DNA of 64,000 nt from Nitrospira japonica (GTDB lineage Bacteria; Nitrospirota; Thermodesulfovibrionia; Thermodesulfovibrionales; SM23-35): positions 58,555 through 122,554 of the forward strand of contig DYFC01000054.1 in assembly GCA_020725385.1 (NCBI GenBank). Direction: 5' to 3'. Of the stretch, positions 27,805-55,444 are shown one piece after another. The notes under the pieces are model-generated. The model had not been told where the DNA came from and searched no databases. It worked only from the letters and a program-made list of their open reading frames with translations. Made by a program: the position numbers and the translations under genes. Position 1 is the stretch's first letter. Every line of letters begins with the position of its first letter.

Positions 27805-28515
27805 TTATTTTTTTGAATTACTTTCTGATTTTTTTTCTTCCCAAGTAGTTAGGACACCCATAAGTTTATCAATCATCTTTAAAGTGAATCTTTCACTAAA
27901 TCCAGCAAGAAAAGCTATAACATACGGTAATTCACGGGTATGGATTTTAACATTGTCAAATCCCTGGACTGAAACTAAACCAATAAAATAAATCATATAG
28001 ACAAACCAGCCGAAGATACCTCCCATTATAGGTTTGCAATAATACCACAATTCATATTTTGGGTCAAAATCTCTTGCTTGTATATGCTGATATATTCCAT
28101 AGATTGCAATAGTTATTCCGCCAAGAGCGCCAAACCATACAGTTTGAAGATGAAGTAGAATAGGGTCTTGCAAAAATCCATTCCATAAAACAAAATTTGG
28201 TAATTTAAAGGAGCAATAGCCTATGAATAAAAGAAAGAAAAGATAGCCCAATTCGATCCATAATAATTTTCTTGCAAGAGGAATTGATTTTTGACTTATT
28301 TCAATTGTTTCTACTTTTTGCAAAACCTCTTTATATTTTTTTTCAAACTCCTGCTGATTTCCGCTGGTTAACAAATCTTCTATTTCTTTAATATGCATTG
28401 AAATTTGACTCGTAATAAATTCGTTTTCTTTTAAATGTCTTGCTTTTTCTTTTAAGCCTTTTAATAATTCATGAGCTTTTTCTTTATGTTCATTTTTATC
28501 AGAAGTCGGTGACAT
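27805..28515 (-). CDS. Multi-pass membrane protein (holin-like candidate)
   Basis: Charged N-terminal region, then about four hydrophobic segments with FGALGG, YCKPIMGGIFG and AFLAGFSE; directly after the lysin-like gene. Confidence 0.6.
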   Translation of the reverse strand: MSPTSDKNEHKEKAHELLKGLKEKARHLKENEFITSQISMHIKEIEDLLTSGNQQEFEKKYKEVLQKVETIEISQKSIPLARKLLWIELGYLFFLLFIGYCSFKLPNFVLWNGFLQDPILLHLQTVWFGALGGITIAIYGIYQHIQARDFDPKYELWYYCKPIMGGIFGWFVYMIYFIGLVSVQGFDNVKIHTRELPYVIAFLAGFSERFTLKMIDKLMGVLTTWEEKKSESNSKK

Positions 28516-28544
28516 TTTAGTGCTCCTTTTTATTTCTTAAATAT

Positions 28545-29474
28545 TTACAATCCAAGAGCTGCTCGTGTTGCAGGCCCGACTTTGCCATCAGGTATTAATC
28601 CATGAGCACTCTGAAAATCCTTTACTGCCTGTCCTGTTACTTTTCCAAAAACTCCATCTGCTTCATTTTCATCAAATCCAAGTGCGAGTTGAAGCTTTCT
28701 TACATCTTCGCCTTTCATTAAAGGTTTAGTGTAAAACAATACTCTTTCATCTGTATTTTCTGCTGAGGCTATAACAGGAGTTGTATGTTGTCCTAAAAGT
28801 ATTTCTTCGGTAATTAGAACATTCCTGATATTTAAAGGCAATGGCAAGTCCCACTTATTTTCTTCAATAAGTTCTAAAAATGTATCCATTCTATAAACAG
28901 TCTTATGAAGAAGAGCGTTACTGTGGTTTGCAAGCCATTGTCTTCTCGTTTCTACATATGCTTTTATCCAATTTTCTTCTCCTATGCCTTCAGCTCCACC
29001 ATATTGTTCATTGGTCATATTTTTAGTTCTTTCGAAAGAGCCATGTATTTTACTGTCATAAACTACAGTGACTCCAAGAGGTTTGCTAATACCTATTGAA
29101 TCCGCTGAAATTAATGCTGGCGTCCAGTATATCCTGTCAAAAAACTCATCCTGTGTCTTATGCATGACAGGATCATTACCTGCCTGACGGAGTAAGGACT
29201 TGACCTTTTCATTTGTGTCAAGTTTTATATCCCTTCTATCGAATGCTGAAAGAAAAGGCTTCAAAGCTTCAGAAAATTCACCTCCTGCATTACAGTAAGC
29301 ATGAATCAAAAGCGCAAGATTACCGCTTGAAAGAGTTGTTTGGCTTTTTCCATAAGTAAGATGTCCTGTATCTCCTTTAAGAACGGTAACCGAACCGTAA
29401 TCACCAATTGGCTTCCCGGTCTCAAAAATATTAACTATTGCCTGTGCAGTTTTCTTTTGTAATTCAGTAAACAT
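28545..29474 (-). CDS. GH46 chitosanase/lysozyme-superfamily hydrolase with C-terminal peptidoglycan-binding domain
   Basis: IVNIFETG...DTGHLTYG catalytic region, YDSKIHG, and PG_binding_1 (GEDVRKLQ..DGVFG..T..AVKDFQ..GL..DGKVGPAT); no signal peptide. Confidence 0.8.
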   Translation of the reverse strand: MFTELQKKTAQAIVNIFETGKPIGDYGSVTVLKGDTGHLTYGKSQTTLSSGNLALLIHAYCNAGGEFSEALKPFLSAFDRRDIKLDTNEKVKSLLRQAGNDPVMHKTQDEFFDRIYWTPALISADSIGISKPLGVTVVYDSKIHGSFERTKNMTNEQYGGAEGIGEENWIKAYVETRRQWLANHSNALLHKTVYRMDTFLELIEENKWDLPLPLNIRNVLITEEILLGQHTTPVIASAENTDERVLFYTKPLMKGEDVRKLQLALGFDENEADGVFGKVTGQAVKDFQSAHGLIPDGKVGPATRAALGL

Positions 29475-29486
29475 ATTTATTACTCC

Positions 29487-30797
29487 TTATATATCATTAT
29501 CAGGTCTTACAAAAATGGTATCATCATACATTGCAATAAAAGGCTCGTTTGCATCAGACATCCAGAAAGTAAAACGAACTGTTCCATTTTGAGAAATAGT
29601 AAAATCAAAGTTAGGTGAAAAATCCACAAGAAGTGGCAATTCAGGCCCTAAATATCCAGGGTGCAAATCTCTATGTTCGTATAAAGCCGTAGCATTTTGA
29701 CTCTCATCAGATGGAATAAATAGTATTTGAGTACGGACTTCAGGTAGTGTATAATTTTGTGGCATTGGCATATCTGTTGTGTCAGTATAAAAACGTACCT
29801 GTCCTCTAAAACGTATTGGTTGCACACTTGGGAAAGGCGCTTCTATTGAACGTCTAACTTCAGAAAGATAGTGTCTTTGCCCCTGACCTTCATAACATAA
29901 TTCATTTAAAGGCTGGTTGAACATTACCTGAGAAGACATATAGGCAATGCTCCAATTTGTTGTAAGCGGAACAGGAGGCGCCGGTACAGGAGGAGCAGGT
30001 GGTCCTGTAAAATATTCAGTTACAAGTAAAGCATAGGATTCAGCATTATTCATTGCACGATTCAAGGGCAGATTAATCACCTCATCACGCGGTATAACAT
30101 TTCTCATCAAACCAATATGATGAGCTGATTCATGGATGATTGTACTTAACTGATCATTTAAGCCAAGCTCAAAAAAAGCAGGGCATATTGATATTCTCGT
30201 TCCTTGTCCTGCATATGCATATGCATTCGGGTCATGATCTGAATTTTCCCTTCCACAAGTTTGACGTGTTACACATCTAAATAGTCTTGGATTTTCAATA
30301 GCCTGCCTCATTCTACGCAAACGCCTGATGATTATACTTAAAGTTTCAGGATCATGGCGGCCTGCGATTCTGCCCCGAGGCGCTGGCGGTGGGTGAAAGA
30401 AACGGTTCAGTGTGCTTTCAATAACAGTAATAATTTCACGCGGATTATTCAAATGATCTTCAAGAGCAGATATAGTCGAAGTTATCCATCTTGGCGCTCT
30501 CATTCTTGCAAAATCAACATGAAAATCCTGTACTGCATTGCAACCGCGATAATCTCTTGTTCTAAGTTCTTCAGCAGTTTCTTCGCTTATACTGCGTGAT
30601 ATAGTTGTCTGATTGTTTCTTGCTTTTTGCTCTGTGCTTGAATTTAAAAGGCGTTGAATCGCTTTATTCCCAATAGTTTTTTGTAGAAATAAAATGCGGT
30701 TAACTGGAGTAGAAGTTCTGGAAGTCCTGATAGAATGGCGTTTAGTCCCATCAGTTTTATCAGATGACTTTGATGTGAAAAGGAAGCGTTCAAACAT
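29487..30797 (-). CDS. Putative eCIS cargo: M35/aspzincin-like metallopeptidase with N-terminal LQxTIGN motif
   Basis: PVNRILFLQKTIGNKAIQRLL at the N-terminus; ISICPAFF...IIHESAHHIG...AMNNAESY; Pro-rich linker and a C-terminal domain. The ATG at 30797 is preferred. Confidence 0.75.
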   Translation of the reverse strand: MFERFLFTSKSSDKTDGTKRHSIRTSRTSTPVNRILFLQKTIGNKAIQRLLNSSTEQKARNNQTTISRSISEETAEELRTRDYRGCNAVQDFHVDFARMRAPRWITSTISALEDHLNNPREIITVIESTLNRFFHPPPAPRGRIAGRHDPETLSIIIRRLRRMRQAIENPRLFRCVTRQTCGRENSDHDPNAYAYAGQGTRISICPAFFELGLNDQLSTIIHESAHHIGLMRNVIPRDEVINLPLNRAMNNAESYALLVTEYFTGPPAPPVPAPPVPLTTNWSIAYMSSQVMFNQPLNELCYEGQGQRHYLSEVRRSIEAPFPSVQPIRFRGQVRFYTDTTDMPMPQNYTLPEVRTQILFIPSDESQNATALYEHRDLHPGYLGPELPLLVDFSPNFDFTISQNGTVRFTFWMSDANEPFIAMYDDTIFVRPDNDI

Positions 30798-30804
30798 TTT
30801 ATAT

Positions 30805-33030
30805 TTAACCTTTAACACCCCAGAAGTGTTCTTTATAATCCTCTGCCAATCCTGGATATGCTTCTGTTTGTGCTTCTGTAACTCCTGGCATCATCCTTGC
30901 CAACGCTGCATAAATCTTGATAATCCTAATATGTTCGTTATTTAATTGAATAAATCTCGGACAGATAAATATAGTTGCGGGCAATAACCATCTGCAAAAT
31001 CTATTGCCGGCACATGCAGCGTCAGAGTCAGGCACACAAAATATATTTAATTGGTGTTCGAAATTATCGCCCATCTGTCTGTATCTGTCATAAATACCAG
31101 CCATTGCTGCACGGTCTCCTCTCCCGAACCATCTGAAAAAATATGGCCTCATATGATTTTCATTATTTGTATTTCCATATGTCTGTCCGATGCCAAAAAT
31201 AGCATATGTGTTCCATCTCTCAGCCCAAGCAACTGCCTTTCTTACCTTTTCTTCATTAGGTCCCATACCGGCTGTGACGCTGGGATCGCATCCTGCTACT
31301 ACATCCTCGACAGTAGGTCCTATATGGGATGGGTGCTGGTTTTGGATTAACTCAAAGACAAAACGAGTGAGACTTTGAGCATTATCAATTGCCTGATCAC
31401 GTGTAAGAAAAACGAATACTCTTTCACGTTCGTATGCACGATCATGAACTTCATATCTTGAGCCATGAGCTGATTCATGTACAATAACTTCTTCTTTGCC
31501 ACTACCAGTGAAAAAAACTGGGCATACTATTAAGTTTTCTGGATTCGCAGCAGCCCAGCCACCTGCACGACAAGTTGGATCTTCATCATCAGCGCATTTA
31601 AGGATTGTTGTTAGTAAATTCGGCTGAGTTAAAAAATCACTCATAGCTTGAAGTCTATTTCTAACTTCTAGTGCAGTTGCAGCACTATGATCATTTGCAA
31701 AATTGTTGTCCAATGCTATCCTCACATTATTTTGTGGGTCAGTCTGCATAGATGGATTTCCTCTGTATGTATCTAATCGATGAACTGCATCATTTAGCAT
31801 TGGCACAACCCTATCACGTACTTGGCGTACTATATCCTGTCTTGTCTGATCACAAGGTTGTATATGAGAACCTGTTGAACCTGTTCTGTTTGAAGCTTGG
31901 CTGTCAGGCTTCATTTCTACAGAACGCCAGAAGCGGTAATCAATCTGTCCAGAACTTTTATGTAATAGAGGCACATGATATATGATTCCATCATATCCTT
32001 CATCTATAATAAGGTTGGCAACAGCCTCTATGCGTTTCTCAGCCAAGAGATGGTTATATGTACGGTTACCTTCTTCGGAAGCATAACCATATAAGTTTAT
32101 ATCCTGTACCCCGCTTGAAGCCATTCTGCGTGAAAATCTTCTGGCTTTTTCTGCTTCAATAGGATCTAAATCATTTTCAGGGGAAGAATTATAAAGTCCT
32201 GGTTTATCAAAATCAAAAAAAACATCATCAGGATAATTATCGCGATTTTCATATAATCCTGTAACTCTAAAGGATTCTGGAGTAGTCCTTTGTAATATAT
32301 TACTATTACTCGAATCTTGCTGCATCACATGAGTTAGTTCATGCGCCAGAAGATATTTTCCCGAGGCTGTGTATGGTTGATATTGCCCTGTGCCAAATAC
32401 AATATCATTTCCAACAGTAAATGCAAGAGCACTTACCGAATCCGCAAGAGAGGATGCTTTTGCATCAGTATGTATTCTTACATTGGTGAAATTATGATTA
32501 AAACGAGGTTCAAAGTATTTGCGTATTTGTGTCGACAAAGGATTGCCTCCACCTCTTATTTCATTAATGCGGCATTCTACATCAGTGGAAATTTCAGGGT
32601 TATCATCAGAATATGCTTTTAATAATGAATTTGTTATTAAGGGTTTTAATTTAATTTCTTCTTCATCCCCGCACGAGAGACCTTTTGCAAAAGGTCAAGT
32701 CGGTTTCATCTGGATTCCGGGCTCCGGCATCCGCATAACCATATCGGCCACCCTGTCTGCCTCTTGTTCATAAATATCATAGGATCGGCTAATTTTGAGT
32801 TTTGTATGTATCCCTAGCCTTATGCCCTGTCCCCTGAACCCCATACCCTGAACCCTATACCCTGTACCCCTTAAGATCTTTCCCGCTGCCTGATTACCAA
32901 TTGTCTTATGTAAAAATAAGATTTGGTCAACAGGCGAATTTATAGTCTTAGAGAATTCAGTCTTTCGTGTTTGAGAAATTGAGTTCTCTTTCTTTGATTC
33001 AAGTTCTTTTATTTTAGTTTTCTCATTCAT
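30805..33030 (-). CDS. Putative eCIS cargo DUF4157-OmpA-M35 peptidase, with one in-frame TGA at 32695-32697
   Basis: Track ORFs 32695..33030 and 30805..32538 share a frame, and the 52 codons between them contain no stop. DUF4157 (FEPRF..VRIHTD..ALAFTVG..LLAHELTHVMQQ), OmpA-like region (VFFDFDK, GYASEEG..YN..LAEKR), HESAH peptidase, then a degenerate second peptidase repeat. Confidence 0.8.
32812..32867. repeat. Eight-unit degenerate heptamer tandem repeat inside a coding region
   Basis: ccctagc cttatgc cctgtcc cctgaac cccatac cctgaac cctatac cctgtac; encodes GTGYRVQGMGFRGQGIRLG. Confidence 0.75.
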
Positions 33031-34621
33031 TAATTCTAAACTTTCTATTAATACCTGTGCCTGTAAAAGCTATTACTCCTCTTTCAATTAAAGGATTTAT
33101 TATTTCATCAGCCTCATCATTTGCAATGCTGTATTTGGTTATCAATGTTTTATAAGGAATATTTGGATTTGCAATAATATCTTTGACAATATCATCTTCT
33201 AAAACTTTTCTATCCGGTCTTATGATAATTTCTTCATGTTCTGCTGTTACAGATACTGCCCACCATCTGACTCTGGCTTCATTGATTGGTTCTTTTGAAC
33301 GATTTGTAAAGATAATAACAAGTTCATTTTTATCTATATCAAATGAAGAACTTAATTCAATGCCTTTATTCCAGATTTCATCTCCGGTAATAATAAAACT
33401 TTTACGTGCAATTGGATTTCTATATTCGATTCCAAGCATTACACCATAAATTTTATTTTTAAGTTTAATAGGAAGTGAATTACGGGTTGTTCCCGGAGCT
33501 ATATCTAAAAATACACAAATCCCTGTAATACATTCTGCTCCATTTCCACCTGAAGAAGAAATAGTTATACCATTTGTCCCGGAAGCAATTGAAACATTGC
33601 TGCCTGCATTTATTGAAAAATTGCCGCTATTGTCAGGCCTGATATTATTGATATTAAAAATAGCGCTATTCCATTTTCTTGCATCAGAATTTGAGACATG
33701 TTTATCTCTTACTGTATCTGTGCTGGATGGGTCAACTTGTTTCATTGAATGGTTCTCACCGATAGTAATAGTATTAGCAGCATCATTTGGAGTTATGGTA
33801 ATACTATTTACTGAAATTAGATCAATGTTACCACCTGGATTGCTTACACCATCTATACTGACAATAGCGCCTATCTGTGATGCAGTTGTTTTATGAGGGT
33901 TATTAATATCAGATACATGACACATTAAAAGGTCAGTTAAAACTTTATGATTGTTAATTAAACAAATATATTTTTTTGTTTCATTTTTATCAATTGTCCA
34001 ATCAGTTTTTAGGGCAAGGAAAAAAACTTTAAGTTCTTCATCATTAGGACATGCTTTGTTTTTTTCATTAAGCCACGATTTAATTTCTTCTCTAATAGCA
34101 TTGCTATTAGATGCTCCTGAAAGATCAGGACATGAAAGAGCAGATATTGCAGGTGCATCAGGAGTTGCGATAACTTCAAAGTCTTCTATTATTCTATTAG
34201 GACAGCATGTTTCATCACAACTCGAGGGATTTGATGCTGAATGTACAAGCTCTCCATAAACAGGTTTGTGTCTTAGGTATAAATACCAGAATGTAGTTGC
34301 TGTTGTTTTCTCAAAAATAATTTTTTTCTGTATTCCTGATGGAACATAAATCTCATGCCCGCATACATCCAGCGCAAAACTACTTTTATTGAATGTCAAA
34401 TATATATCTGTGCTACCTTTTAAAGAGATAGCTATCTGGTCAGGGTCAAAGCCACAAACAATTCCATTTCCATGAAGCGTTTGATTAAGTAAAAATCTTT
34501 TGTTATTCATATATTTTTGTTCTTCTTCAAAATCCCTGACAGTCATTAGTTTCCCATAAAAATAATTATTTCTCTGAAACAATTGATATTCGCAATTTTT
34601 ATCATCTTTTCCGTTTGACAT
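33023..34621 (-). CDS. eCIS tail fibre-like protein (Afp13-type N-terminus)
   Basis: RNNYFYGKLMTVRDFEEEQKY..LHGNGIVCG N-terminus; fibre-like H..DINNPHKTTASQIGA and SIDGV/NINNIRPD repeats. Confidence 0.75.
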   Translation of the reverse strand: MSNGKDDKNCEYQLFQRNNYFYGKLMTVRDFEEEQKYMNNKRFLLNQTLHGNGIVCGFDPDQIAISLKGSTDIYLTFNKSSFALDVCGHEIYVPSGIQKKIIFEKTTATTFWYLYLRHKPVYGELVHSASNPSSCDETCCPNRIIEDFEVIATPDAPAISALSCPDLSGASNSNAIREEIKSWLNEKNKACPNDEELKVFFLALKTDWTIDKNETKKYICLINNHKVLTDLLMCHVSDINNPHKTTASQIGAIVSIDGVSNPGGNIDLISVNSITITPNDAANTITIGENHSMKQVDPSSTDTVRDKHVSNSDARKWNSAIFNINNIRPDNSGNFSINAGSNVSIASGTNGITISSSGGNGAECITGICVFLDIAPGTTRNSLPIKLKNKIYGVMLGIEYRNPIARKSFIITGDEIWNKGIELSSSFDIDKNELVIIFTNRSKEPINEARVRWWAVSVTAEHEEIIIRPDRKVLEDDIVKDIIANPNIPYKTLITKYSIANDEADEIINPLIERGVIAFTGTGINRKFRINE

Positions 34622-34639
34622 TTTAAATCCTCCTTATTT

Positions 34640-36697: not shown

Positions 36698-36698
36698 C

Positions 36699-42210: not shown

Positions 42211-42212
42211 AT

Positions 42213-44280: not shown

Positions 44281-44283
44281 AAA

Positions 44284-47862: not shown

Positions 47863-47868
47863 CTACGG

Positions 47869-48303: not shown

Positions 48304-48308
48304 TTATT

Positions 48309-48853: not shown

Positions 48854-48885
48854 TAACATCCCTCCGTATATTTATATTCTTCAAA

Positions 48886-49329
48886 TTATGAAACCCTCTG
48901 TATACCCTCATGAACAATTTCAAGAGTTTCAATCGCTACATCATTACCTTTAGCGGTAAAGTCAGGAGCATCATATTTTGTAGGCCATGCCTGAATAATA
49001 TTCCACCTTGCCTTGTCACTTCCTACTTCATCAACGAGTATGATGGAAATATTTTTCCTTGCTCCATCTGCTCCTGTATCTATAACCTGCTTCCTCCAGT
49101 TGTATAAATCCATAGAATCAGTAATTCCCCATTTAAGTGTTATATTTGAGTATTTTGTTAGCCCTGAAAGTTTTCTAACAGTTGTCGGGTCAGTTCCTTC
49201 CCTATATTCAATAGGATCTGTAGTGGTATCACCAATAGTGCATTCACTGAATCCTGCTTGGGTGATACCATCAATTTCAACTCTAAATCTAAAATTTCTA
49301 TAAGGGTCTTTTCTTTGCCCAACCGCCAT
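48886..49329 (-). CDS. Major tail tube protein (T4 gp19-like)
   Basis: DPYRNFRFRVEIDG, YREG, ITLKWG, AWPTKY.APDF.A.GNDVAIETLEIVHEG. Confidence 0.96.
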   Translation of the reverse strand: MAVGQRKDPYRNFRFRVEIDGITQAGFSECTIGDTTTDPIEYREGTDPTTVRKLSGLTKYSNITLKWGITDSMDLYNWRKQVIDTGADGARKNISIILVDEVGSDKARWNIIQAWPTKYDAPDFTAKGNDVAIETLEIVHEGIQRVS

Positions 49330-49421
49330 ATATACCTCCTCTTTTAAGTAACAATACTGTTAACAATCCATTATTTATTTGCTTCATTTATGTGTTATTA
49401 CGATTCCCAATTTCCTCATTT

Positions 49422-49475
49422 TCAACCGTATAAACTGTGTAAACCTTGTAAACTATGTAAACTGTGTAAACTTAT
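49422..49475. repeat. 9-mer tandem repeat between sheath and tube genes
   Basis: tcaaccgta taaactgtg taaaccttg taaactatg taaactgtg taaacttat. Confidence 0.8.
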
Positions 49476-51506
49476 TTATTCGGTTATTGCTGAACCACCT
49501 GCCCATTGAGCAATTCGGAATATTACAAATTCTGCTGGTTTCACAGGCGCTACTCCAATAACACAGATAAGCCTGCCATTATCTATATCATCCTGTGTCA
49601 TAGTTGTTCTGTCACATTTTACAAAGAAAGCTTCTTCAGCTTTTGTTCCCATAAGAGCACCTTCCCGCCACACCCTTGTGAGAAATTCTGTTATAGTAGC
49701 CCTCACTCTTGCCCACAGCTTTTCATTATTAGGCTCAAAAACAACCCATTGGGTTCCTTCATCAATAGATTCTTCAAGATAGAGAAAAAGACGTCTTACA
49801 TTTATATACTTCCAGAGGGAATTTGATGAACATGTACGGGCTCCCCATACTCTTATGCCTCGTCCTGGAAACGCACGTATAAGATTGATGCCCGCTGGAT
49901 TTAATATATCTTGCTCACCTTTATTTAATTGATATTTAAGATCAACAACACCTGAGAGTTTTTCATTTGCTGGAGCTTTATGGACTCCTCTTGCTTGGTC
50001 GCTTCTTGCATAAATTCCCATTACTGCTCCTGATGGTGGAATAAATATATCTTTCTTTTCCAATGAGTCATAAACTTTTATCCAGGGATGATACAATGCA
50101 GCATATGAAGTATCAATAAGATTTCTGTGAGCTTGTAAATCAGATACTTTCTGAGCATTTTCCTGCATATCAAGAACTGCAAATCTATCTTTAAGGTTCT
50201 CACAATGAGCTATCAAAGCAAGCTGGACATTTATATCAGTTATACCTGGCGCTGCAATAATATTTACTTCATCAATATCTTTAAATGCTTCAATCCCAGA
50301 ACGTTTGCCCGGCCCATTATCAAGTCCCTTAAAGTCAGATGCAGTAAGCCCGGAAATAGTTCCATCACTTCCGTTTGCTAGTTTAATATAAAGTTTTCCA
50401 TTTATAAGATCATTGTTTGTTGGCATATCAAATGGGTCTGTACGGGTATAATCTGCTGAGGCAGAATAAGGTGATTTAAGAGTTATTAATGATGAACGAT
50501 TATTGACAACTTTAATAAAATAATTTGATGCATCAGGATTCATTGAGAGATAATTAAATGTTTCCACGTCATTTTTATAAATTACCTGAAGATCAAACTC
50601 ACATGTTGAAATTGTTTTTATCGGAGGTGCTGATGTATCAATAACTCCTGCATCTCCAGTAAGATGAGAGGAAAGTGTAATTATATCGTCTTGAATTGAA
50701 GTAATTTTTCTATATTGTTTGTTTGAACCATTATCATAGACAATGATTGCTCCTTTATAAAATCCGTTTTTATTCTTTATCTTGTAACGCGTAGAAGTTG
50801 CTGCATCTCCTATAACTTCTATTATCTGTGTCTTTGCCTGAGAAGATGGCATACTGCGTATAATAATATCTTCTCCCCAGTCACCTTTGTTTATTGCAAA
50901 AATATCAAGTGTCTTAGATGCAGCTGATGCTCCTCCTGCAAGTGTTGAAACAATTACACGGGTAGAATTTTTTGGATAGTTGCTGCCAATGGGGTTGCTC
51001 AATGTTACTGAATTTGATGAGTTGTTGTAAGAAGATATTGTTAAACCTGAATGTGATGATTCTACAGAGCCATCAGCTCTTAACTTTTCAAGACTAAGAC
51101 TGCTTGTTGTATCAATACCATGAAGTGATTCAAGCTTTAATACTGTATCTCCATTATTACAATCTTCAGTAAGTTGTGTAATTACGCCGCAATTTATAGA
51201 CATGTTTTTTGCTTCCAAAGCATCTGATGGCAGCACTCTTAGAACATAACACCTGCTTCCGCCATTCATAAAAAAACTCTCAACAGCATAAGGAAGAAAA
51301 CGATAATTGCTATAGCTTTCAGGTAAATATGAACCAAACTTTCTTTGAAATTCACCAAAACTCGTTATGAGTTCTGGCAACCCTTCTGCTGGCCCTTTTT
51401 CTGCAACACCAAGAAAACCTGCTGTACTTGTACTAACGCCTTCAATTGGCTTTGCGCCGATCTCTATTTCCTCAATATATACACCCGGTGATAAATACTC
51501 TGGCAT
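49476..51506 (-). CDS. Contractile tail sheath protein
   Basis: MPEYLSPGVYIEE, PPSG..G..AR.D..RGVHKAPAN, VWGART, YINVRRL, WVVFEPN, APVKPAEFVIFRI. Confidence 0.98.
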   Translation of the reverse strand: MPEYLSPGVYIEEIEIGAKPIEGVSTSTAGFLGVAEKGPAEGLPELITSFGEFQRKFGSYLPESYSNYRFLPYAVESFFMNGGSRCYVLRVLPSDALEAKNMSINCGVITQLTEDCNNGDTVLKLESLHGIDTTSSLSLEKLRADGSVESSHSGLTISSYNNSSNSVTLSNPIGSNYPKNSTRVIVSTLAGGASAASKTLDIFAINKGDWGEDIIIRSMPSSQAKTQIIEVIGDAATSTRYKIKNKNGFYKGAIIVYDNGSNKQYRKITSIQDDIITLSSHLTGDAGVIDTSAPPIKTISTCEFDLQVIYKNDVETFNYLSMNPDASNYFIKVVNNRSSLITLKSPYSASADYTRTDPFDMPTNNDLINGKLYIKLANGSDGTISGLTASDFKGLDNGPGKRSGIEAFKDIDEVNIIAAPGITDINVQLALIAHCENLKDRFAVLDMQENAQKVSDLQAHRNLIDTSYAALYHPWIKVYDSLEKKDIFIPPSGAVMGIYARSDQARGVHKAPANEKLSGVVDLKYQLNKGEQDILNPAGINLIRAFPGRGIRVWGARTCSSNSLWKYINVRRLFLYLEESIDEGTQWVVFEPNNEKLWARVRATITEFLTRVWREGALMGTKAEEAFFVKCDRTTMTQDDIDNGRLICVIGVAPVKPAEFVIFRIAQWAGGSAITE

Positions 51507-51575
51507 TTTTCCCTCCTTTTAAAATTTGTTCTAATAAATTTAATAATGTTTACATTGAGAAAGAAGAGTTATTTT

Positions 51576-52145
51576 CTATGGGAATGGTATAACCCCTATA
51601 GAAACCGTTCTTCTCTCAAGAACATCGGCAGAGATTACTTTTGTATCACCGCCTTTCTGTATATTTATTTGTATATGCTCATTTTTAATATCCTTAAAAT
51701 AAAGAGCAAATTCACCTCTTTCATCTGTCATAGTCTCAATTTGTTTACTTATAACCTTAATTGATGCATTTTCAATAGGACCTGCTATGCCGGTAACTAT
51801 ACCTCTTATTAATGTTGCATTTTCAGGAAAAGGATATGCTGGATTAGGAATTAAATTTATAGTTACTACAGGGTTTTTCGGGTCAAGAGAAGATATATCA
51901 ATTTGTTTATTAACTGGGAAAAATATTTCACTATCAATCGCTACTAAATAGTTATCTTCTTTAATATCTGTAAAAATAAAATAACCGCTTGGATTTTTAT
52001 AAGCTATTTTGTTATTTTCTGGTATTGACACTCTAATTGAATTAAGAACCATTTCACCAGTGAAGCTATCAGTAACCCGTAAAGCTATAGATAGTTTAGT
52101 AATTAAACTATCAGTTATATAGAAATTATCTATCGTTGGGTTCAT
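51576..52145 (-). CDS. Carboxypeptidase-regulatory-like (beta-sandwich) eCIS accessory protein
   Basis: L.PNPAYPFP..ATLIRG.V, TDERGEF; lies between DUF4255 and the sheath gene. Confidence 0.7.
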   Translation of the reverse strand: MNPTIDNFYITDSLITKLSIALRVTDSFTGEMVLNSIRVSIPENNKIAYKNPSGYFIFTDIKEDNYLVAIDSEIFFPVNKQIDISSLDPKNPVVTINLIPNPAYPFPENATLIRGIVTGIAGPIENASIKVISKQIETMTDERGEFALYFKDIKNEHIQINIQKGGDTKVISADVLERRTVSIGVIPFP

Positions 52146-52149
52146 AGAT

Positions 52150-52743
52150 TTATCCGCTGTTCCTTTTTGAAATTAGATGTCCATTATCTATTTCTTTAGA
52201 AATAACACGTTGCATACTCATTTCAATTGATGAATCTATAAGCACAGGAGTCACCATATAACTAATTGATAGTTTGTAAGGCACATCCTGAAAAGTACCC
52301 CATAACTTTGTAAGATCATCAATCGAAAGTGGATTGAAAATAATCTTAATTTCATTATTGCTACCCGAGAGGCTACCCTGAAGAACACTACCAGATAGTA
52401 CAGGGTTGTTGAAAAATACCTGCATTACTTTTCCAAGAATATATTTTTCCTGTGCAGGGTCATTGCTATATGTAGTAACAAGATAGAAAAGCTCAAGAAA
52501 TAAAGGAGGTTGAAGCACTCTGTTACTATCTATTATCTGCATCTTTTCATTTTTTAAAAAAATGTTTTCAGTAATTTGATAAAGAAAAATCAATACTTTA
52601 TTTGGATTGCCTGACTCGTTAATTATTTCTTTTGGTGATTTAAGGCTTATCATTGGTTTCGGACTTATGCCAGTCCATGGATCATCTTCCAGCAACTTCT
52701 GCAAGGTTTCGCTCACATCTCCTATAACTGTATAATTACTCAT
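52150..52743 (-). CDS. DUF4255 / Pvc16-Afp16 cap-terminator protein
   Basis: IFLYQITEN..LKN, PPL.LEL.YLVT, LGKVMQVF, LW......YKLSISY.V.PV.I. Confidence 0.9.
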   Translation of the reverse strand: MSNYTVIGDVSETLQKLLEDDPWTGISPKPMISLKSPKEIINESGNPNKVLIFLYQITENIFLKNEKMQIIDSNRVLQPPLFLELFYLVTTYSNDPAQEKYILGKVMQVFFNNPVLSGSVLQGSLSGSNNEIKIIFNPLSIDDLTKLWGTFQDVPYKLSISYMVTPVLIDSSIEMSMQRVISKEIDNGHLISKRNSG

Positions 52744-54938
52744 TGGCATCCCATCTCAAGCATTTCATAATATTCTCCAAAATCATTTTTAAGACATAAT
52801 TTCCCTATTTTTTCATATTCCATTTTTACAGCATTTATAAGATGAAAGATATTGATTTCTTTATTTTCAGATGCTGCAAGAAAAGCAGCATTAGTGGCAA
52901 CATTTCTTATATTGCCTCCTGAGAGCTTGAATTGACGGGCAAGAAAATTAAAATCTATGTCACTATTTAAAGGAGTATTTTCAGGAAATATAGAAAGCCA
53001 TATATCTTTTCTCATGGTTTCATCAGGATAAGGAAAATCTACAATATAATGCATTCTTCTTACGAATGCATCATCTATATTGCTTCTGAGATTTGTTGCA
53101 AGTATAACTATGCCGTTATACTCTTCGATTTTTTGTAAAAGATAAGCGATCTCTATATTTGCATAACGATCGTGTGCATCTTTTACTTCAGAACGTTTCC
53201 CGAAAAGGGCATCTGCTTCATCAAAAAAAAGTATAACATTGCTATTTCCTGCTGCTGTAAATATTTTGTCAAGATTTTTTTCTGTTTCACCTATATATTT
53301 ACTTACTATTCTTGAAAGGTCTATTCTGAAAATATCAATATTTAGTTCTTTTGCGATTATCTGGGCAGCCATTGTTTTGCCAGTGCCGGATGAACCTGAA
53401 AAGAGTACATTCAACCCATTTCCCATAGAAAATTTTTTCCCGAGACCCCACTCGCCAAGAACTTTATGCCTGAATTTCACATAATTACATATATTGCGCA
53501 ACACATTTTTTTTATCAGGAGGCAGAATAATATCGTTCCATGAATATGTGTAATCTAATTTTCTGGCAAGATAATTTAATTCTGAATCAGAATAAAGACG
53601 GCATGCATTATATATATCTTCAGGTTCAATTTGATTATTTCCATGTTGCCATAAGGCTAAATTACGGGCTGTTTCCAGAGCAATCTTTATCCTTCCCTCT
53701 GTAAAATGAAATTTGGAAGCTATTTCTTCTATATAATTAGAATTAATATTTCTACGGGTTCCGTTTAAATAAGTCTCCCATATATTTTTTCTTTCAAGAT
53801 CATCAAATTCAGGGAATTCAATATCTATAAATGAAAAATTATCTATAAAGGATGCATTATTGCATGGTTTTTTACTTAGGATAAAAGTTAATTTTGAGAA
53901 TGTCTTTAATGAATCTATTAAATAAAATATCATTGAAGCTTTTTCATTGTTTTCTGTTAAAGCTTCAATATTATCAATACATAGTGCTCCTTGTTGTAAA
54001 ATACATTCTCTTCCAAGAATCCATGAAAGTTCACCAAAACTAATAGGTTCTGTAATGAGTCTTTCAATATCAGAATATAAAACAGGAATCCTGAGGCTAT
54101 TACATATCCTTCTTACAGTGGTTTTTCTTCCTGAACCTTTCTTTCCATGAAAATAGAAAACGAGGTTTTTATTTGTTGGGTTTTGCTTACTAAAGTATCC
54201 GTCGACAAAATTAATAGTTTTTTGAATAAGACAATCTTGAAAATGGTCTTTGTGATAATTATTTTTACTTGTCAGATATTTAACAGATCTACCGAGTCTA
54301 ATATCTATAATATTTAAGCCTAACAAAAAAGAAGTAATACGCTCATCTAATTTTGTTGATTTTGAAAGAAGAGAACCAGGATTATCAGAAGATGTATCAT
54401 ATAATTGAATTAATCTGAATTTGCTTAAAGGAGCAGAGTGAAAAAAAGAAGAAAGGTGCAAGAGTCTTTCTTTATCTGAAGAAAATAAAAGATTTAAAAT
54501 CAGGTTAACAGTAGGTTTTTTAATAGTAATATCATCCTGTATGTACGCAAATAACTTTTCATATTTTTTATTCAATTCAGGAGCAAGGCAGATTAAAATA
54601 CACTTTTCTTCAAAATTATTCAGATGGAATAAACTTGAAAGATGTGGTAGTGAAAGATAGATTCCTTTGTTTAAACTAATTTTTTTACGGCTATCGATAA
54701 TTGTTTTAAGTTTCTTAACTTCCTGAAGTAAATCTGCTATTTCTTCATCTTCATTCCTTTCCAAAGAAAAATTTAGAAGGTTATTAATCTCTCCGTCTTC
54801 AATAACAAGACCCTTTAAATTGTTTCTGGTTGTATCATAAAGTTTCTGCTGTCTTAAGATATTGGTTTTTATAACCAAATCAAGCCATTTAAGTTCATCT
54901 GATAAATGCTCATAACTATCGGTATATGCTTCCTGCAT
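52740..54938 (-). CDS. eCIS AAA+ ATPase (Afp15/Pvc15-like)
   Basis: LAPEL..KYEKLFAYIQDD; Walker A GSSGTGKT; VSKYIGETEKNL; FFDEADALFGKRSEVKDAHDRYAN. Confidence 0.95.
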   Translation of the reverse strand: MQEAYTDSYEHLSDELKWLDLVIKTNILRQQKLYDTTRNNLKGLVIEDGEINNLLNFSLERNEDEEIADLLQEVKKLKTIIDSRKKISLNKGIYLSLPHLSSLFHLNNFEEKCILICLAPELNKKYEKLFAYIQDDITIKKPTVNLILNLLFSSDKERLLHLSSFFHSAPLSKFRLIQLYDTSSDNPGSLLSKSTKLDERITSFLLGLNIIDIRLGRSVKYLTSKNNYHKDHFQDCLIQKTINFVDGYFSKQNPTNKNLVFYFHGKKGSGRKTTVRRICNSLRIPVLYSDIERLITEPISFGELSWILGRECILQQGALCIDNIEALTENNEKASMIFYLIDSLKTFSKLTFILSKKPCNNASFIDNFSFIDIEFPEFDDLERKNIWETYLNGTRRNINSNYIEEIASKFHFTEGRIKIALETARNLALWQHGNNQIEPEDIYNACRLYSDSELNYLARKLDYTYSWNDIILPPDKKNVLRNICNYVKFRHKVLGEWGLGKKFSMGNGLNVLFSGSSGTGKTMAAQIIAKELNIDIFRIDLSRIVSKYIGETEKNLDKIFTAAGNSNVILFFDEADALFGKRSEVKDAHDRYANIEIAYLLQKIEEYNGIVILATNLRSNIDDAFVRRMHYIVDFPYPDETMRKDIWLSIFPENTPLNSDIDFNFLARQFKLSGGNIRNVATNAAFLAASENKEINIFHLINAVKMEYEKIGKLCLKNDFGEYYEMLEMGCQ

Positions 54939-55078
54939 ATCCTTCCTTTTTATTTTTACATTTATACTTTTAGCCCTTTTTAAAACAGGTAATTAAAAAG
55001 GTGAAATAAAACAATCCTGAATCTTCCAGGACAATACTAAAGAAAGGGTAATAGTTCAGTTATATTTAATGGCTTAAC

Positions 55079-55444
55079 CTATGGCAAATGCCTGCCTATT
55101 TTTTCGATCAAATCTCTTGGTCTAACAGGTTTTGGTATATAGTCATCAAACCCGTGCATCTTGAAGCCGTCATTGGGATTATTTATTTTTTCCGCAGTTA
55201 ATGCGATAGATGGTATATTCTTCGTTGATGACTCTGATTTTAGTATTTTAATCGCATCAAATCCATTCATTACAGGCATTTGTATATCCATTAAAATAAG
55301 ATTAGGCCTTTCCTGCATCGCTACTCTAATACCTTCTGCTCCATTTTTTGCCTGAAGTGGTTCATACCCTCCACATTTGAGGACTGTACAAAATAACTGT
55401 AAATTTTCCTCGTTATCCTCGATTACCAGGACTCTTTTGCCCAT
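55079..55444 (-). CDS. Single-domain response regulator (CheY/DivK-like)
   Basis: VLVIEDN, LILMDIQMPVMNG, IALTA, YIPKP. Confidence 0.92.
   Translation of the reverse strand: MGKRVLVIEDNEENLQLFCTVLKCGGYEPLQAKNGAEGIRVAMQERPNLILMDIQMPVMNGFDAIKILKSESSTKNIPSIALTAEKINNPNDGFKMHGFDDYIPKPVRPRDLIEKIGRHLP

Follow-up and report, generated by a model that had tools for sequence, protein, structure and literature searches.

An Afp/PVC-type contractile injection system cluster with a conserved in-frame TGA in its main cargo gene

What is the long run of minus-strand genes that stands between the dsr and menaquinone genes of this genome, and can it still work when the gene for its main, toxin-like cargo protein contains an in-frame TGA? 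Within the window, that is, the whole stretch of 64,000 nucleotides analysed, positions 28545–54938 (minus strand) carry a complete phage-tail-like contractile injection system (CIS) cluster of the Afp/PVC type. We consider it likely that this is a complete, long-resident cluster of PLTS / dbeCIS lineage II which would work as its studied counterparts do, and that the UGA of its main cargo gene is read as selenocysteine.

Setting and extent of the locus

The surroundings are as the earlier note on this DNA described them: dsrAB (5676–8314), dsrC (14312–14647) and dsrMKJOP-like genes (15348–20341) lie on one side, and futalosine-pathway menaquinone genes (55789–63227) on the other. Its description of the organism as a sulfate reducer is a fair inference, because the genome also harbours aprA (890.6 bits, above the cut-off) and sat. 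The extent proposed for the island, 27805–55444, proves too generous at both ends, where two genes drop out:

27805–28515, minus strand: membrane protein of 236 residues and doubtful membership, with about three to four hydrophobic segments behind an 80-residue polar N-terminus (hydropathy scan)
55079–55444, minus strand: receiver-only response regulator of 121 residues, outside the system (Pfam Response_reg only)

The membrane protein matches no family in Pfam, NCBIfam or PHROG, and its homologue is absent behind the lysin gene of the sister species G003, where a caspase-like gene stands instead. As conservation of the locus in that species does not extend to this gene, 28545–54938 describes the island better. 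The response regulator had been counted as a component of the system and is rejected as such, being a conserved core neighbour: full-length orthologues of 70–71% identity are found in three of five congeners (G001, G002 and G004), all three devoid of a CIS, and in G001 the gene lies 4.8 kb from the same amidohydrolase gene that flanks the far side of the cluster here, as against 32 kb in the present genome. The insertion site is thus variable, with a core gene on either side: the one for the response regulator and the one for the amidohydrolase. The upstream DNA available for the related loci compared revealed no regulator, and a terminator-like hairpin (55032–55014) separates the regulator from the ATPase gene.

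Structural genes, class and age

Arranged head to tail, the structural genes extend along the minus strand between 54938 and 33023, and cargo-type genes continue to 28545. Family matches (Pfam, NCBIfam and PHROG profiles) were found for every core part and include the eCIS-specific Pfam markers Pvc16_N, WHD-AAA ATPase and eCIS_core, bearing out along 28545–54938 the earlier claim of a full structural set with cargo candidates. The structural genes, all on the minus strand, are:

52740–54938: Afp15/Cis15-like AAA+ ATPase, 732 residues, first gene of the operon (Pfam WHD variant 7.7e-54, AAA 4.8e-32)
52150–52749: Afp16/Pvc16-type tail cap, 199 residues (Pfam Pvc16_N 2.5e-38)
51576–52145: CarboxypepD_reg-like beta-sandwich protein, 189 residues, clade-specific (Pfam PF13715 1.9e-08)
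49476–51506: sheath, 676 residues (Pfam Phage_sheath_1 and Phage_sheath_1C)
48886–49329: inner tube protein, 147 residues, Cis1-like (Pfam Phage_T4_gp19 1.5e-48; TIGR02241 above cut-off)
48488–48859: tail assembly chaperone-like protein, 123 residues (phrog_508 'tail assembly chaperone' 3.4e-07)
47869–48303: second tube or tube adaptor, 144 residues, Cis5-like (Pfam gp19 2.1e-45)
45008–46084: tape-measure-like protein, 358 residues, in the slot between tube 2 and Afp7
44284–44952: Afp7-like tube initiator with LysM, 222 residues (Pfam CIS_tube 6.7e-27, LysM 5.5e-08)
43189–44280: gp27/gpD-like half of a split spike, 363 residues (NCBIfam VgrG_rel 1.8e-32, model positions 4–348)
42536–43192: gp5-like half of the split spike, 218 residues (Pfam Phage_base_V 4.3e-29; VgrG_rel model positions 368–529)
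42213–42506: PAAR spike tip, 97 residues (Pfam PAAR_motif 1.1e-13)
41818–42237: gp25-like baseplate wedge or sheath initiator, 139 residues (Pfam GPW_gp25 3e-28)
38612–41815: Baseplate_J protein 1, 1067 residues, Afp11/Cis11-like (Pfam Baseplate_J 1.8e-19; TIGR02243 above cut-off)
36699–38618: Baseplate_J protein 2, 639 residues (Pfam Baseplate_J 3.2e-13; TIGR02243, 305 bits, above cut-off)
34640–36730: Afp12/Cis12-like baseplate protein with N-terminal NHL repeats, 696 residues (TIGR02242 above cut-off; Pfam Tail_P2_I and NHL)
33023–34621: Afp13/Cis13-like fibre, 532 residues (NCBIfam CIS13_fam 5.7e-30, residues 14–248, below cut-off)

The gene order from ATPase to Baseplate_J is the same in related bacterial and archaeal loci, as far as each locus extends. 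Full-length ATPase homologues of 38–44% identity occupy the same position in nine of 12 related loci, the other three being too short to reach it, and the CarboxypepD_reg-like protein is also found between cap and sheath in nine of the 12 compared. Among 80 named loci, tblastn matches to the cap occur in 31 and the chaperone-like protein is kept in 63. The sheath gene is the only one found in the genome. Of the two CIS tube models, CIS1_fam fits the inner tube better and CIS5_fam the second tube, both scoring below their cut-offs; CIS12_fam for the Cis12-like protein (2.6e-69) and Pfam Phage_GPD for the gp27/gpD-like spike half are below theirs as well. The tape-measure-like protein has no match in Pfam, NCBIfam or PHROG; its C-terminal ∼25 residues are common to a single ORF (372–974 residues) in the same slot in all eight relatives examined, and its position suggests a tape measure. 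Baseplate_J protein 1 aligns with its ANME-2 homologue over 1183 columns. The fibre has 226 homologues, those with names being mostly from Methanosarcinales/ANME, and its AF2 model (mean pLDDT 67.5) gives weak fold matches.

Sheath, tube and baseplate families are common to phages and pyocins, and the fibre model weakly resembles pyocin and phage receptor-binding domains (Foldseek E 0.02–0.09; VIA-align Z 7.9). It is nevertheless hardly credible that we are dealing with the tail of a defective prophage, or with an R-type tailocin, that kills by puncturing and injects nothing. Systems of the eCIS type are set apart from phage tails and pyocins by markers that are present here, namely the Afp15-type AAA+ ATPase, the Pvc16 cap and DUF4157 proteins with leaders, and the sheath matches pyocin and T4 structures in the PDB (E 1e-11 to 1e-13) far more weakly than CIS sheaths. 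The earlier note, which reported no capsid genes, no T6SS membrane complex and no integrase or att site, had named head or packaging genes elsewhere as a finding that would speak against it. Terminase_6N, HK97 capsid, Phage_portal, TssM and VipB/TssC were not found in the genome, a draft of 71 contigs and 96.6% completeness searched for these three head/packaging and two T6SS families; control genomes gave matches in the same searches. Within the window there is no integrase domain in the 57 ORFs scanned, no flanking att-like repeat and no tRNA. The evidence thus supports a stand-alone phage-tail-like injection system that is neither prophage nor T6SS.

The class can be narrowed by the subtype rules in section 10 of Chen 2019: with two afp11, a split afp8, and afp10 and afp12/13 present, the gene content fits PLTS / dbeCIS lineage II, IIa-like, an assignment made by gene content alone rather than by dbeCIS profiles or an Afp11 tree. 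As an eCIS the cluster is ordinary, belonging to a widespread known type. Finding an eCIS in a sulfate reducer is of little novelty, less than the earlier note implied: such eCIS/PLTS loci have been catalogued in syntrophic sulfate reducers and nearly all ANME-2 (PMC10553843, PMC9012536), and of 400 other genomes sampled from the phylum, 54 have sheath-like genes.

The cluster is long resident, because its composition equals that of the genome: its GC content is 0.344 versus 0.347, and 23% of random genome windows have a tetranucleotide distance at least as large. The sister species holds diverged pieces of the same locus, with 57–74% amino-acid identity in the cargo-lysin module. An alternative is a decaying or silent relic, complete on paper and out of use. 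The patchiness of the sheath among close kin (two of 40 relatives, one of five congeners) is in keeping with such a relic, and no listed run holding the locus is on record as RNA, which is not evidence either way. We nonetheless judge decay improbable. The conserved TGA aside, no frameshift or stop is seen in the 22 genes from 54938 to 28545; core structural proteins from the ATPase to gp25 match homologues over nearly their full length, and the fibre has full-length homologues. Furthermore, structural proteins are 61–90% identical to those of the sister species, compared with 65–68% for a housekeeping neighbour, and the locus recurs with many silent differences in contigs of four runs from four studies.

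Cargo set and site of action

Three leader-bearing proteins form the predicted cargo, comprising two DUF4157 domains, two M35-like zinc-peptidase domains and one OmpA-like region; a glycosidase gene follows them. All are encoded on the minus strand:

46412–47725: DUF4157 (eCIS_core) protein, 437 residues, cargo candidate 1 (Pfam eCIS_core 1.2e-33, residues 181–256)
30805–33030: main cargo gene, 741 codons with TGA readthrough (eCIS_core 8.5e-29, Aspzincin_M35 3.8e-09, weak OmpA)
29487–30818: M35-like protein with leader-type motif, 443 residues, cargo candidate 3 (Aspzincin_M35 29.4 bits, just under the cut-off of 30)
28545–29474: GH46 chitosanase-like glycosidase with PG_binding_1, 309 residues (Pfam Glyco_hydro_46 3.4e-14, PG_binding_1 3.6e-15)

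Candidate 1 displays a leader-type motif, two HExxH and 16 Cys, and has an orthologue at the corresponding place in a related locus (L088). Candidate 3 has an HExxH at residue 229 and a 57% identical homologue in the sister species; its Atlas neighbours are eCIS_core plus M35 clusters, with scores of just 0.79–0.80. The glycosidase matches PDB 7c6c (E 1.5e-15), retains the Glu of the IFE(N/T)G motif and has a 68% identical homologue directly 3' of the cargo genes in the sister species. It is a candidate release lysin or cell-wall effector, and the presence of a chitosanase-like enzyme with a peptidoglycan-binding domain behind the cargo points to one of two things: the system acts at a bacterial cell wall, or the producer lyses to release it.

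Systems studied elsewhere suggest how the machine would work. Its baseplate would be built of gp25, the two Baseplate_J proteins, Cis12, the fibre, Afp7, the split gp27/gp5 spike and PAAR; the tape-measure-like protein would guide polymerisation of tube and sheath, and the particle would be closed by the Pvc16-type cap. The AAA+ ATPase would load the cargo, including a main protein read through one conserved UGA as selenocysteine, via its N-terminal leader, a step for which the AlgoCIS work (bioRxiv 10.64898/2026.05.27.728243) describes the N-terminal region as needed and DUF4157 as dispensable. Following extracellular release, sheath contraction would drive spike and cargo into a target cell.

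Extracellular action remains an assumption, as it was in the earlier note; the closest solved sheaths come from cell-bound systems. The best PDB match is 9EZM (E 7.3e-131), the membrane-bound archaeal T6SS of Halogeometricum borinquense, which mediates contact-dependent antagonism with DUF4157 toxins; the next, 8BKY and 8BL4, are cytoplasmic Streptomyces CIS. These three matches make it a serious, if tentative, possibility that the same machine fires from inside the cell and that 'eCIS' is a misnomer. It might be anchored to the cytoplasmic membrane, like the haloarchaeal T6SS or the thylakoid-anchored CIS of cyanobacteria, or lie unattached in the cytoplasm, as do the CIS through which Streptomyces cells die. 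For the haloarchaeal system, the homologues of Cis11, Cis12 and Cis13 have been considered as potential contacts with the membrane, and Baseplate_J protein 1 bears an N-terminal extension of roughly 750 residues. No recognisable holin/spanin set was found in Pfam, NCBIfam or PHROG searches; no holin can be named, and the only membrane protein at the locus, 27805–28515, is the one lacking from the sister species. On the other hand, genes for BamA and OmpH in the window mark the producer as a diderm, and among the structural genes there is no trans-envelope or membrane-anchor protein and none with a hydrophobic segment in the scan, Baseplate_J protein 1 included. Two further features favour a particle that would leave the cell: the fibre gene, and the peptidoglycan-binding glycosidase, which two species have kept at the 3' end of the locus, as lytic release would predict.

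The in-frame TGA of the main cargo gene

The locus had been called apparently intact, a description that calls for qualification at the main cargo gene: ORF finders list it as 32695–33030 (111 residues) and 30805–32538 (577 residues), in one frame with a single TGA (32695–32697) between them. The in-frame TGA itself is absent from the earlier note. It sits between the leader, a loading-type N-terminal region, and DUF4157, which continues in frame behind it and is followed by the OmpA-like region and the M35-like zinc peptidase domain.

Contiguous leader-DUF4157 proteins are the norm (2508 matches at E<=1e-10 among 4116 candidates scored). Within this order, by contrast, 15 of the 17 matches that span the linker contain exactly one TGA and no other stop, the remaining two being without TGA. 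Residue-by-residue reading, which left out both TGA-less matches and two TGA rows, placed the codon at one motif position, KP[GTS]-U-[PS]x6-C, in all 14 genes read (10 genomes). Matches from other families of the phylum have no TGA, nor do the seven linker-spanning matches outside it (from three of five genomes). The motif recurs in four of 120 listed contiguous homologues, with Cys at the U position in two, Trp in one and Tyr in one; 34 of 89 homologues have a linker without any Cys. A tRNA-SeC gene was found in the genome, and SelB scores above the cut-off in five of five genomes tested. The UGA is probably read as selenocysteine, a prediction from sequence.

Evidence for a SECIS is weak. 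A hairpin whose loop contains GU can form ∼20 nt 3' of the UGA, with 86% of cells paired; in this gene, two rare codons, TCG (5% of Ser) and GGG (11% of Gly), are part of it. Its bases double as codons of a conserved peptide, no pair is altered on both sides, that is, there is no compensatory change, and 500 of 500 shuffles pair equally well. At −10.7 kcal/mol it is much weaker than the hairpins 3' of the formate-dehydrogenase-type UGAs of this genome (−21 to −23 kcal/mol, all over 63 nt), and Rfam gave no SECIS match. The lack of covariation, the weaker hairpin and the negative Rfam search would suit a TGA acting as a real stop, whether by a conserved two-gene design or an old inactivation. 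The locus would then encode the leader peptide (111 residues) on its own and, from TTG at 32538, a DUF4157-M35 protein of 577 residues that lacks a leader; by the AlgoCIS analogy, the large protein would then not be loaded. A GGAGG stands 6 nt ahead of that TTG, and a stand-alone leader-type ORF in the sister species ends soon past the same motif region. We regard a genuine stop as unlikely all the same. The GGAGG is there because the conserved Gly-Gly-Gly motif of the domain forces it. The 14 genes sharing the one position are only ∼40–50% identical, and the codon is always TGA, never TAA or TAG, and always in frame with conserved peptide on either side. Moreover, half of the motif-bearing homologues elsewhere have Cys there, and the TGA form was seen only in the order whose five tested genomes all have SelB.

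The literature searched yielded no description of selenocysteine in such cargo, and the in-frame TGA is the most unusual feature of the locus. Read as selenocysteine, it would create a U-x7-C pair within the linker that joins the loading leader to the HExxH-containing DUF4157 domain.

The injection locus and its gene content

The open reading frames (ORFs) of at least 80 aa with family matches between 27805 and 55444 all lie on the minus strand and abut or overlap one another. Their names are based on Pfam, NCBIfam and PHROGs, and the genes are given here in the order of transcription, with those at the borders.

Features of the minus-strand contractile injection system (CIS) locus (28545-54938) and its borders

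55079-55444, minus: receiver-only response regulator
AAA+ ATPase with the winged-helix N-domain typical of Afp15/Cis15 (Pfam: WHD 7.7e-54, AAA 4.8e-32)
Cap (Pfam: Pvc16_N 2.5e-38)
51576-52145, minus: 189-aa beta-sandwich protein
Sheath, one gene
Cis1-like tube
123-aa protein matching a phage tail assembly chaperone family
Cis5-like tube (tube 2)
437-aa DUF4157 (eCIS_core) protein (1.2e-33)
358-aa protein without family, in the slot between tube 2 and Afp7
Tube-LysM protein (Afp7)
VgrG-related spike, split into a gp27-like and a gp5-like ORF
PAAR protein
gp25
Two Baseplate_J proteins, 1067 and 639 aa
Cis12-like protein with NHL repeats (CIS12_fam match)
Cis13-like fibre (CIS13_fam match)
30805-33030, minus, main cargo gene, first part: 111-aa ORF, directly before the 577-aa ORF
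Main cargo gene, second part: 577-aa protein with eCIS_core (8.5e-29), an OmpA-like region and Aspzincin_M35
443-aa M35-like protein
GH46-like glycosidase fused to PG_binding_1 (the lysin)
236-aa membrane protein
21603-22721: amidohydrolase, used as an anchor for synteny

Sheath, inner tube, gp25, Baseplate_J, VgrG-like spike and PAAR form a contiguous set on one strand in the Pfam and NCBIfam searches, and the contractile injection system that the earlier note reported as an extracellular one (eCIS) is real: every core part has a family match. The Afp15-type ATPase, the Afp16/Pvc16 cap and DUF4157 are named as eCIS-specific markers in the relevant passages of Geller 2021, and all three kinds are present. 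The rules for subtype IIa, as worded in the classification passages of Chen 2019 (PMC6899500), comprise two afp11, a split afp8, afp10, divergent afp12 and afp13 and the absence of afp6; archaea are reported there among its members. The locus carries two Baseplate_J genes, split VgrG_rel halves, PAAR and matches to CIS12_fam and CIS13_fam, and no Afp6-like gene was recognised among the ORFs scanned by family searches, a set that holds no dedicated Afp6 model. By gene content the locus would fit dbeCIS subtype IIa. Among eCIS it thus represents a kind that is already well catalogued, to which it adds a new member.

In 8/8 relatives examined, a single ORF of 372–974 aa stands between tube 2 and Afp7 and shares with the 358-aa protein a C-terminal motif of ∼25 residues; from its position, we read the 358-aa protein as the tape-measure equivalent. 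The 189-aa protein at 51576-52145 is a carboxypeptidase-regulatory-like beta-sandwich whose place between cap and sheath is kept throughout this clade, archaeal systems included. A scan for sigma-70 promoters was uninformative, since it returned 48 sites against 54.2 expected. The sequencing runs that match the locus (14 rows from 9 studies, with no RNA among those listed) are silent on expression.

Genomic setting and kinship

The genome that carries the locus is a draft of 2.46 Mb in 71 contigs, with a GC content of 0.347 and 96.6% completeness. Genes for dsrAB, dsrC and a dsrMKJOP-like set occupy 5676-20341 on the plus strand and those of the futalosine pathway for menaquinone 55789-63227; as aprA and sat are also found in this genome, the dissimilatory sulfate-reduction pathway is encoded, and the placement of the system between dsr and menaquinone genes of a likely sulfate reducer is confirmed. 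The genes for BamA and OmpH in the window indicate a diderm envelope.

The statements of the earlier note that capsid genes, type VI secretion system (T6SS) membrane genes, an integrase and an att site are lacking are likewise borne out. Terminase_6N, the HK97-type capsid and Phage_portal (PF03237, PF05065, PF04860) had no match in the draft genome, the same searches giving matches in 4–5 of 14 control genomes; nor did TssM/IcmF (TIGR03348) and VipB/TssC (PF05943), for which control genomes matched. The absence of head, packaging and T6SS genes is accordingly one of five families in a draft of 71 contigs. No integrase domain occurs among the 57 window ORFs scanned, no flanking repeat pair at the borders of the island and no tRNA within the window. 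The stretch 28545-54938 has a GC content of 0.344, and its tetranucleotide distance from the genome mean is equalled or exceeded by 23% of random windows. Judged by composition and borders, the locus seems to bear no sign of recent mobility.

The upstream stand-alone response regulator, which had been counted as a part of the system, proved to be a core neighbour. Full-length orthologues at 70–71% identity are present in three congeneric genomes (G001, G002 and G004), all three without a CIS, and the identity of UbiE and the amidohydrolase between these genomes is at the same level. In G001 the order is regulator, caspase-like gene, four unknown genes, metallophosphoesterase and amidohydrolase orthologue, 4.8 kb in total. 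The distance from regulator to amidohydrolase is 32 kb in the window, against 4.8 kb in G001, and the CIS therefore occupies a variable spot directly after the core regulator. A terminator-like hairpin lies between regulator and CIS, and no such regulator was found in the available upstream DNA of the related loci compared. The orthologues in CIS-less congeners, together with the anchor synteny in G001, rule it out as the regulator of the system.

A fragmented sister species, G003, harbours pieces of the same system: tubes, chaperone and sheath end at 71–90% amino-acid identity, a piece from spike to Baseplate_J, the ATPase at 47% and the cargo-lysin module at 57–74%. There, the gene after the lysin is caspase-like and not the 236-aa membrane protein, for which reason the island was set at 28545-54938. 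The same replacement weakens a holin-endolysin reading of 27805-29474.

A Peptidase_C14 caspase-family gene follows the regulator in CIS-less G001 (L193:6287-7123) and the CIS lysin in G003 (L173:3169-4032), and is missing at the corresponding place in the window. The interval 22880-27704, between island and amidohydrolase, holds a metallophosphoesterase (423 aa), a PKD-domain protein (407 aa) with hydrophobic segments at its N- and C-terminus, a 187-aa unknown protein and a member of the alpha-amylase family (572 aa). Homologues of the 187-aa and PKD genes stand beside the amidohydrolase in G003; for the amylase no orthologue was found in 5 congeners, which gave weak local matches at E>=2e-6 only. 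The GC content of G003 is 0.49–0.53 on 7/7 contigs looked at (L168-L177), the one with the housekeeping amidohydrolase included, compared with 0.347 in the window's genome, a very large gap for one genus-level group.

Sheath homologues at E<=1e-20 number at least 7573 among the 8000 candidates scored. The nearest of those scored are metagenome proteins (74–89%), and the nearest named sheaths are those of Ca. Methanomarinus (69%), a Methanoperedenaceae archaeon (68%) and then an ANME-2 archaeon. In a tree of 47 sheaths (LG+G4, SH-aLRT support only, Streptomyces as outgroup, three rows shorter than 400 aa dropped beforehand), the phylogeny that the earlier note had proposed, the window sheath falls into a supported clade of 16, in which 2 rows come from its own phylum and 2 from archaea, the other 12 being unnamed. 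Neither the rows of the host phylum (9 rows, 5 changes) nor the archaeal rows (6 rows, 5 changes) are better clustered than shuffled labels, in agreement with the inconsistency between eCIS clades and taxonomy noted in the phylogenetic passages of Chen 2019 (PMC6899500). The system is patchy among kin: in the genomes sampled, the sheath is present in 2/40 relatives, and sheath-like genes (E<=1e-20) in 54/400 other genomes of the phylum.

The comparison of synteny, also put forward in the earlier note, succeeded in one part and failed in another. The order from ATPase to Baseplate_J is identical in Methanosarcina sp. DH2, an ANME-2 archaeon, a Methanobacteriota MAG, an uncultured bacterium and metagenome contigs; these related loci come from a contig scan with the sheath alignment, a broad and not a nearest set that served synteny and naming only. 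In the congeners, the region is rearranged across dsr and mqn, so that nucleotide alignment yielded no clean empty site.

The phage-like protein translocation structure (PLTS) of Methanomethylovorans hollandica was reportedly covered by Sarris 2014. PLTS clusters are described in all ANME groups in the PLTS passages of Chadwick 2022 (PMC9012536), and those of ANME-3 as horizontally acquired (PMC12180501); eCIS are described in Ca. Methanoperedens (PMC12246660) and, in a section of Murali 2023 (PMC10553843), in some syntrophic sulfate reducers. A search of paper texts found none on such systems specifically in the host phylum; those that mention Nitrospirota together with contractile injection are surveys, and Thermodesulfovibrio is mentioned alongside it in a Lake Cadagno study and its preprint, for another reason. 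Transfer of these machines between domains in anoxic habitats has been proposed in the literature, and the sheath identity of 68–69% to ANME-2/Methanosarcinales systems supports that view. The large known family of injection systems gains one lineage with this locus; what sets it apart is a conserved UGA in the linker of its cargo, common to related genomes.

The in-frame TGA of the main cargo gene

Three products of the locus, the proteins of 437 and 443 aa and the 111-aa ORF, each have a leader with the motif L-x2-T-x-G-N-x-A, which is invariant across an alignment of 15 leader-DUF4157 proteins. In the passages on cargo loading of a study of AlgoCIS, the region N-terminal of DUF4157 is needed for loading by the AAA+ ATPase and DUF4157 itself is dispensable (bioRxiv 10.64898/2026.05.27.728243). 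The C-terminal domains of the best 120 contiguous leader-DUF4157 homologues include OmpA, PG_binding_1, YkuD, VanY, phage lysozyme, LysM and M35; this repertoire and the window's own OmpA-like and PG_binding_1 modules point to bacterial cell walls as the putative site of action. In 80 named loci no counterpart was seen of the genes from 30818 down, which is what one would expect of variable cargo. The 577-aa protein has no PDB sequence match at E<=0.01, and in the ESM Atlas the 236-aa protein has unnamed neighbours only and the 443-aa protein neighbours all below 0.9.

The 111-aa and 577-aa ORFs share one frame, with a single TGA (32695-32697) between them. Translation across it gives the canonical architecture of leader, linker and DUF4157, of which contiguous representatives at E<=1e-10 number at least 2508 among the 4116 candidates scored. 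The TGA was at first taken for a nonsense mutation, a reading overturned by whole-genome searches with the read-through protein. Among 400 other genomes of the phylum, 5/5 linker-spanning matches from the same order (4 genomes) contain exactly one TGA, and matches from other families contain none, one having a TAG. Within the order, 14/317 genomes have a match and 15/17 linker-spanning matches exactly one TGA. The residue-level reading covers 14 genes (10 genomes) but neither the two TGA-less rows nor two more rows with the TGA: the TGA falls at one place, KP[GTS]-TGA-[PS]-x6-C-[GSR]-[DE]-E, in 14/14, in proteins that are otherwise only about 40–50% identical. This motif recurs in 4 of the 120 listed contiguous homologues, of which two have Cys at the TGA position, one has Trp and one Tyr. 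Outside the phylum (ANME-2, Methanosarcina, Methanobacteriota MAG, uncultured bacterium and Binatia), 7/7 linker-spanning matches, from 3/5 genomes, have no stop.

Of the machinery for selenocysteine (Sec), the tRNA and SelB were looked for and found. The host genome encodes tRNA-SeC(tca) at C13:40088-40185, and SelB scores above its cut-off in 5/5 tested genomes that carry the TGA form. Two full-length SelB-like genes over the curated cut-off occur in the host (C15:21101-22957 and C52:14715-16565; 384 and 358 bits), compared with one in each of the four other genomes tested. When the host genome was scanned for pairs of ORFs with a lone in-frame TGA between them, 51 candidates emerged, including five sites (two on C27, one each on C62, C31 and C23): two of formate-dehydrogenase type (U-H-S), one thioredoxin-like (D-P-D-U-P-F-C) and two further plausible Sec sites with downstream hairpins. 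The U-H-S and U-P-F-C sites look like classical selenoproteins.

The signal expected behind a Sec codon is less distinct. The candidate SECIS is a hairpin of five pairs with a CGUGC-type loop containing GU, 17–33 nt from the U of the UGA, that can form in most sequences; 86.2% of cells are paired, against 58–75% with the partner slid. There is no compensatory change, 500/500 shuffles pair as well, and the energy from RNAalifold is a mere -3.8 kcal/mol. The hairpin's bases double as codons of a conserved peptide, x-S-C-G-E; in the window gene they include TCG and GGG, which account for 5% and 11% of their codon families in 57 window genes, a single observation that hints at a constraint on the RNA. 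The hairpins behind the formate-dehydrogenase UGAs of the host are far stronger. A scan of 27000-56000 against Rfam at E<=1 returned five chance-level matches and no SECIS, and an earlier candidate hairpin that started inside the UGA codon was dropped, as it is not conserved in relatives.

Set against this weak SECIS, the invariable TGA, the frame kept across it, the homologues with Cys and the Sec machinery make it probable that the UGA of the main cargo gene is read as selenocysteine. That the TGA is a genuine conserved stop, as the poor hairpin might suggest, appears unlikely. Metagenomic variation touches the same linker. In contigs of three runs from three studies, 24 nt at 32699-32722, the 8 linker codons directly before the TGA, give way to 126 different letters, so that the length of the linker varies in frame from strain to strain. 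Contigs of 4 runs carry the locus with many differences, and no change at 32695-32697 is among those listed, which is not counted as proof that the TGA is kept.

If the UGA does encode Sec, gene callers would routinely split such cargo genes, eCIS toxin catalogues would lack them or give them wrong sizes where the anaerobe uses Sec, and selenium would have a use beyond redox enzymes, in an effector that is delivered. The position of Sec just before DUF4157, an unexplained domain with a zinc motif, would also provide a concrete idea on the role of domain and linker. A bolder proposal, which we regard as doubtful, is that CIS cargo proteins in this order are selenoproteins in which U-x7-C, in the linker between leader and DUF4157 HExxH, may serve as a latch that responds to redox state or zinc. 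Such a latch, akin to the cysteine switch in zymogens of metalloproteases, would hold the cargo inactive in the reduced producer and would release it after delivery. Were it true, secreted or injected effectors would have their first selenoprotein, and DUF4157 a first functional handle. A literature search found no description linking DUF4157 with selenocysteine or a selenoprotein with a contractile injection system, and the PLTS passages of Chadwick 2022 (PMC9012536) contain no selenocysteine.

Comparison with known systems and mode of action

The closest counterparts are the PLTS of M. hollandica and ANME-2. Loci of this kind share with the one in the window the order from ATPase to Baseplate_J (Methanosarcina sp. 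DH2, an ANME-2 archaeon and a Methanobacteriota MAG) and a sheath at 68–69% (Ca. Methanomarinus and a Methanoperedenaceae archaeon) within the supported clade of 16, and the homologues of the window fibre include Metho_1611 of M. hollandica; two afp11, a split afp8, PAAR and afp12/13 are common to PLTS/IIa and this locus. In contrast to PLTS, the locus belongs to a bacterium of another phylum, has a DUF4157 gene between tube 2 and the tape-measure-like gene (as does one related locus, L088), possesses a cargo set of its own, with no match in those 80 named loci from 30818 down, and contains a UGA in the cargo linker that none of the archaeal and outgroup homologues examined shows.

AlgoCIS of Algoriphagus machipongonensis is said to carry the cargo proteins Cgo1 and Cgo2. 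Both systems have an Alg15-type AAA+ ATPase, and the cargo passages of the AlgoCIS study (bioRxiv 10.64898/2026.05.27.728243) describe the same N-terminal loading region, DUF4157 and variable C-terminal domain; they report no selenocysteine in the Cgo proteins, whereas the main cargo gene here has its UGA between loading region and DUF4157. Bacterial selenoproteins (formate dehydrogenase, thioredoxin-like UxxC) resemble the window cargo in the conserved UGA, the Cys in some homologues, the frame kept on both sides and a host with tRNA-Sec and SelB. With few exceptions, known selenoproteins are redox enzymes that carry Sec in their active site, whereas here it would sit in the linker of an injected or secreted cargo, behind a SECIS candidate that is short and lacks covariation support.

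The solved sheath closest to that of the window is 9EZM of Halogeometricum borinquense (E 7.3e-131), described in the structural and functional sections of PMC11566945 as part of a contact-dependent archaeal T6SS bound to the cytoplasmic membrane of a monoderm archaeon. DUF4157 proteins serve as secreted or cargo proteins in both; the toxins described there have downstream immunity partners, whereas the window host is diderm and no immunity gene is evident. The second and third best are the cytoplasmic CIS of Streptomyces (8BKY, E 5e-114; 8BL4, E 3e-111), which act inside the producer and which, as outgroup of the sheath tree, fall into the same broad lineage there. In subtype IId, as defined in the classification passages of Chen 2019 (PMC6899500), afp11 is single, afp8 unsplit and afp12/13 mostly absent, and the locus is the opposite on all three counts. 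The sheaths of PVC, Afp, AlgoCIS (7adz, E 8.5e-44) and cyanobacterial systems are much more distant in the PDB search.

Because the closest solved sheaths are cell-bound or cytoplasmic and those of PVC, Afp and AlgoCIS far more distant, extracellular release is only assumed. It is favoured by the fibre gene, by the lack of a membrane segment in any structural protein in a hydropathy scan and by the conserved peptidoglycan-binding glycosidase at the end of the locus, which can be aligned along its whole length with GH46 chitosanases and retains the Glu altered in the 7c6d variant; the lack of a recognisable holin speaks against it. Extracellular action and a cell-bound mode are at roughly even odds. 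An attempt to infer the target of the fibre was dropped, as a low-pLDDT model with fold matches in the common range names no target: the AF2 model has a pLDDT of 67.5 and no Foldseek match at E<=0.001, and the VIA-align scores, Z 8–9.4 for 60 winged-helix-like residues at the C-terminus and Z 7.9 against the depolymerase domain of a Klebsiella phage, are within the range that the tool calls common.

Two kinds of repeat occur at the locus. Between sheath stop and tube start (49419-49471, minus) lie five tandem 9-nt units GTTTACANN, followed by GTTGAAA. The array is absent from the sheath-tube spacer of 9 related loci, and arrays of the same unit, some of them inverted pairs, occur at 10 other places in the genome (contigs C3, C9, C20 and C21, and six on C45); they may represent a family of repeats dispersed through the genome or, alternatively, binding sites in an array. 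Short GC-rich intergenic palindromes of the type GTCATTCC...GGAAT are found at 46305-46336, 46160-46194 and 27746-27776. Metagenome contigs pile up at 46305-46336 to a depth of up to 259 and run into many different flanks, and one contig joins 27776 to 46194 in opposite orientation. These palindromes look like REP-type elements common to the community.
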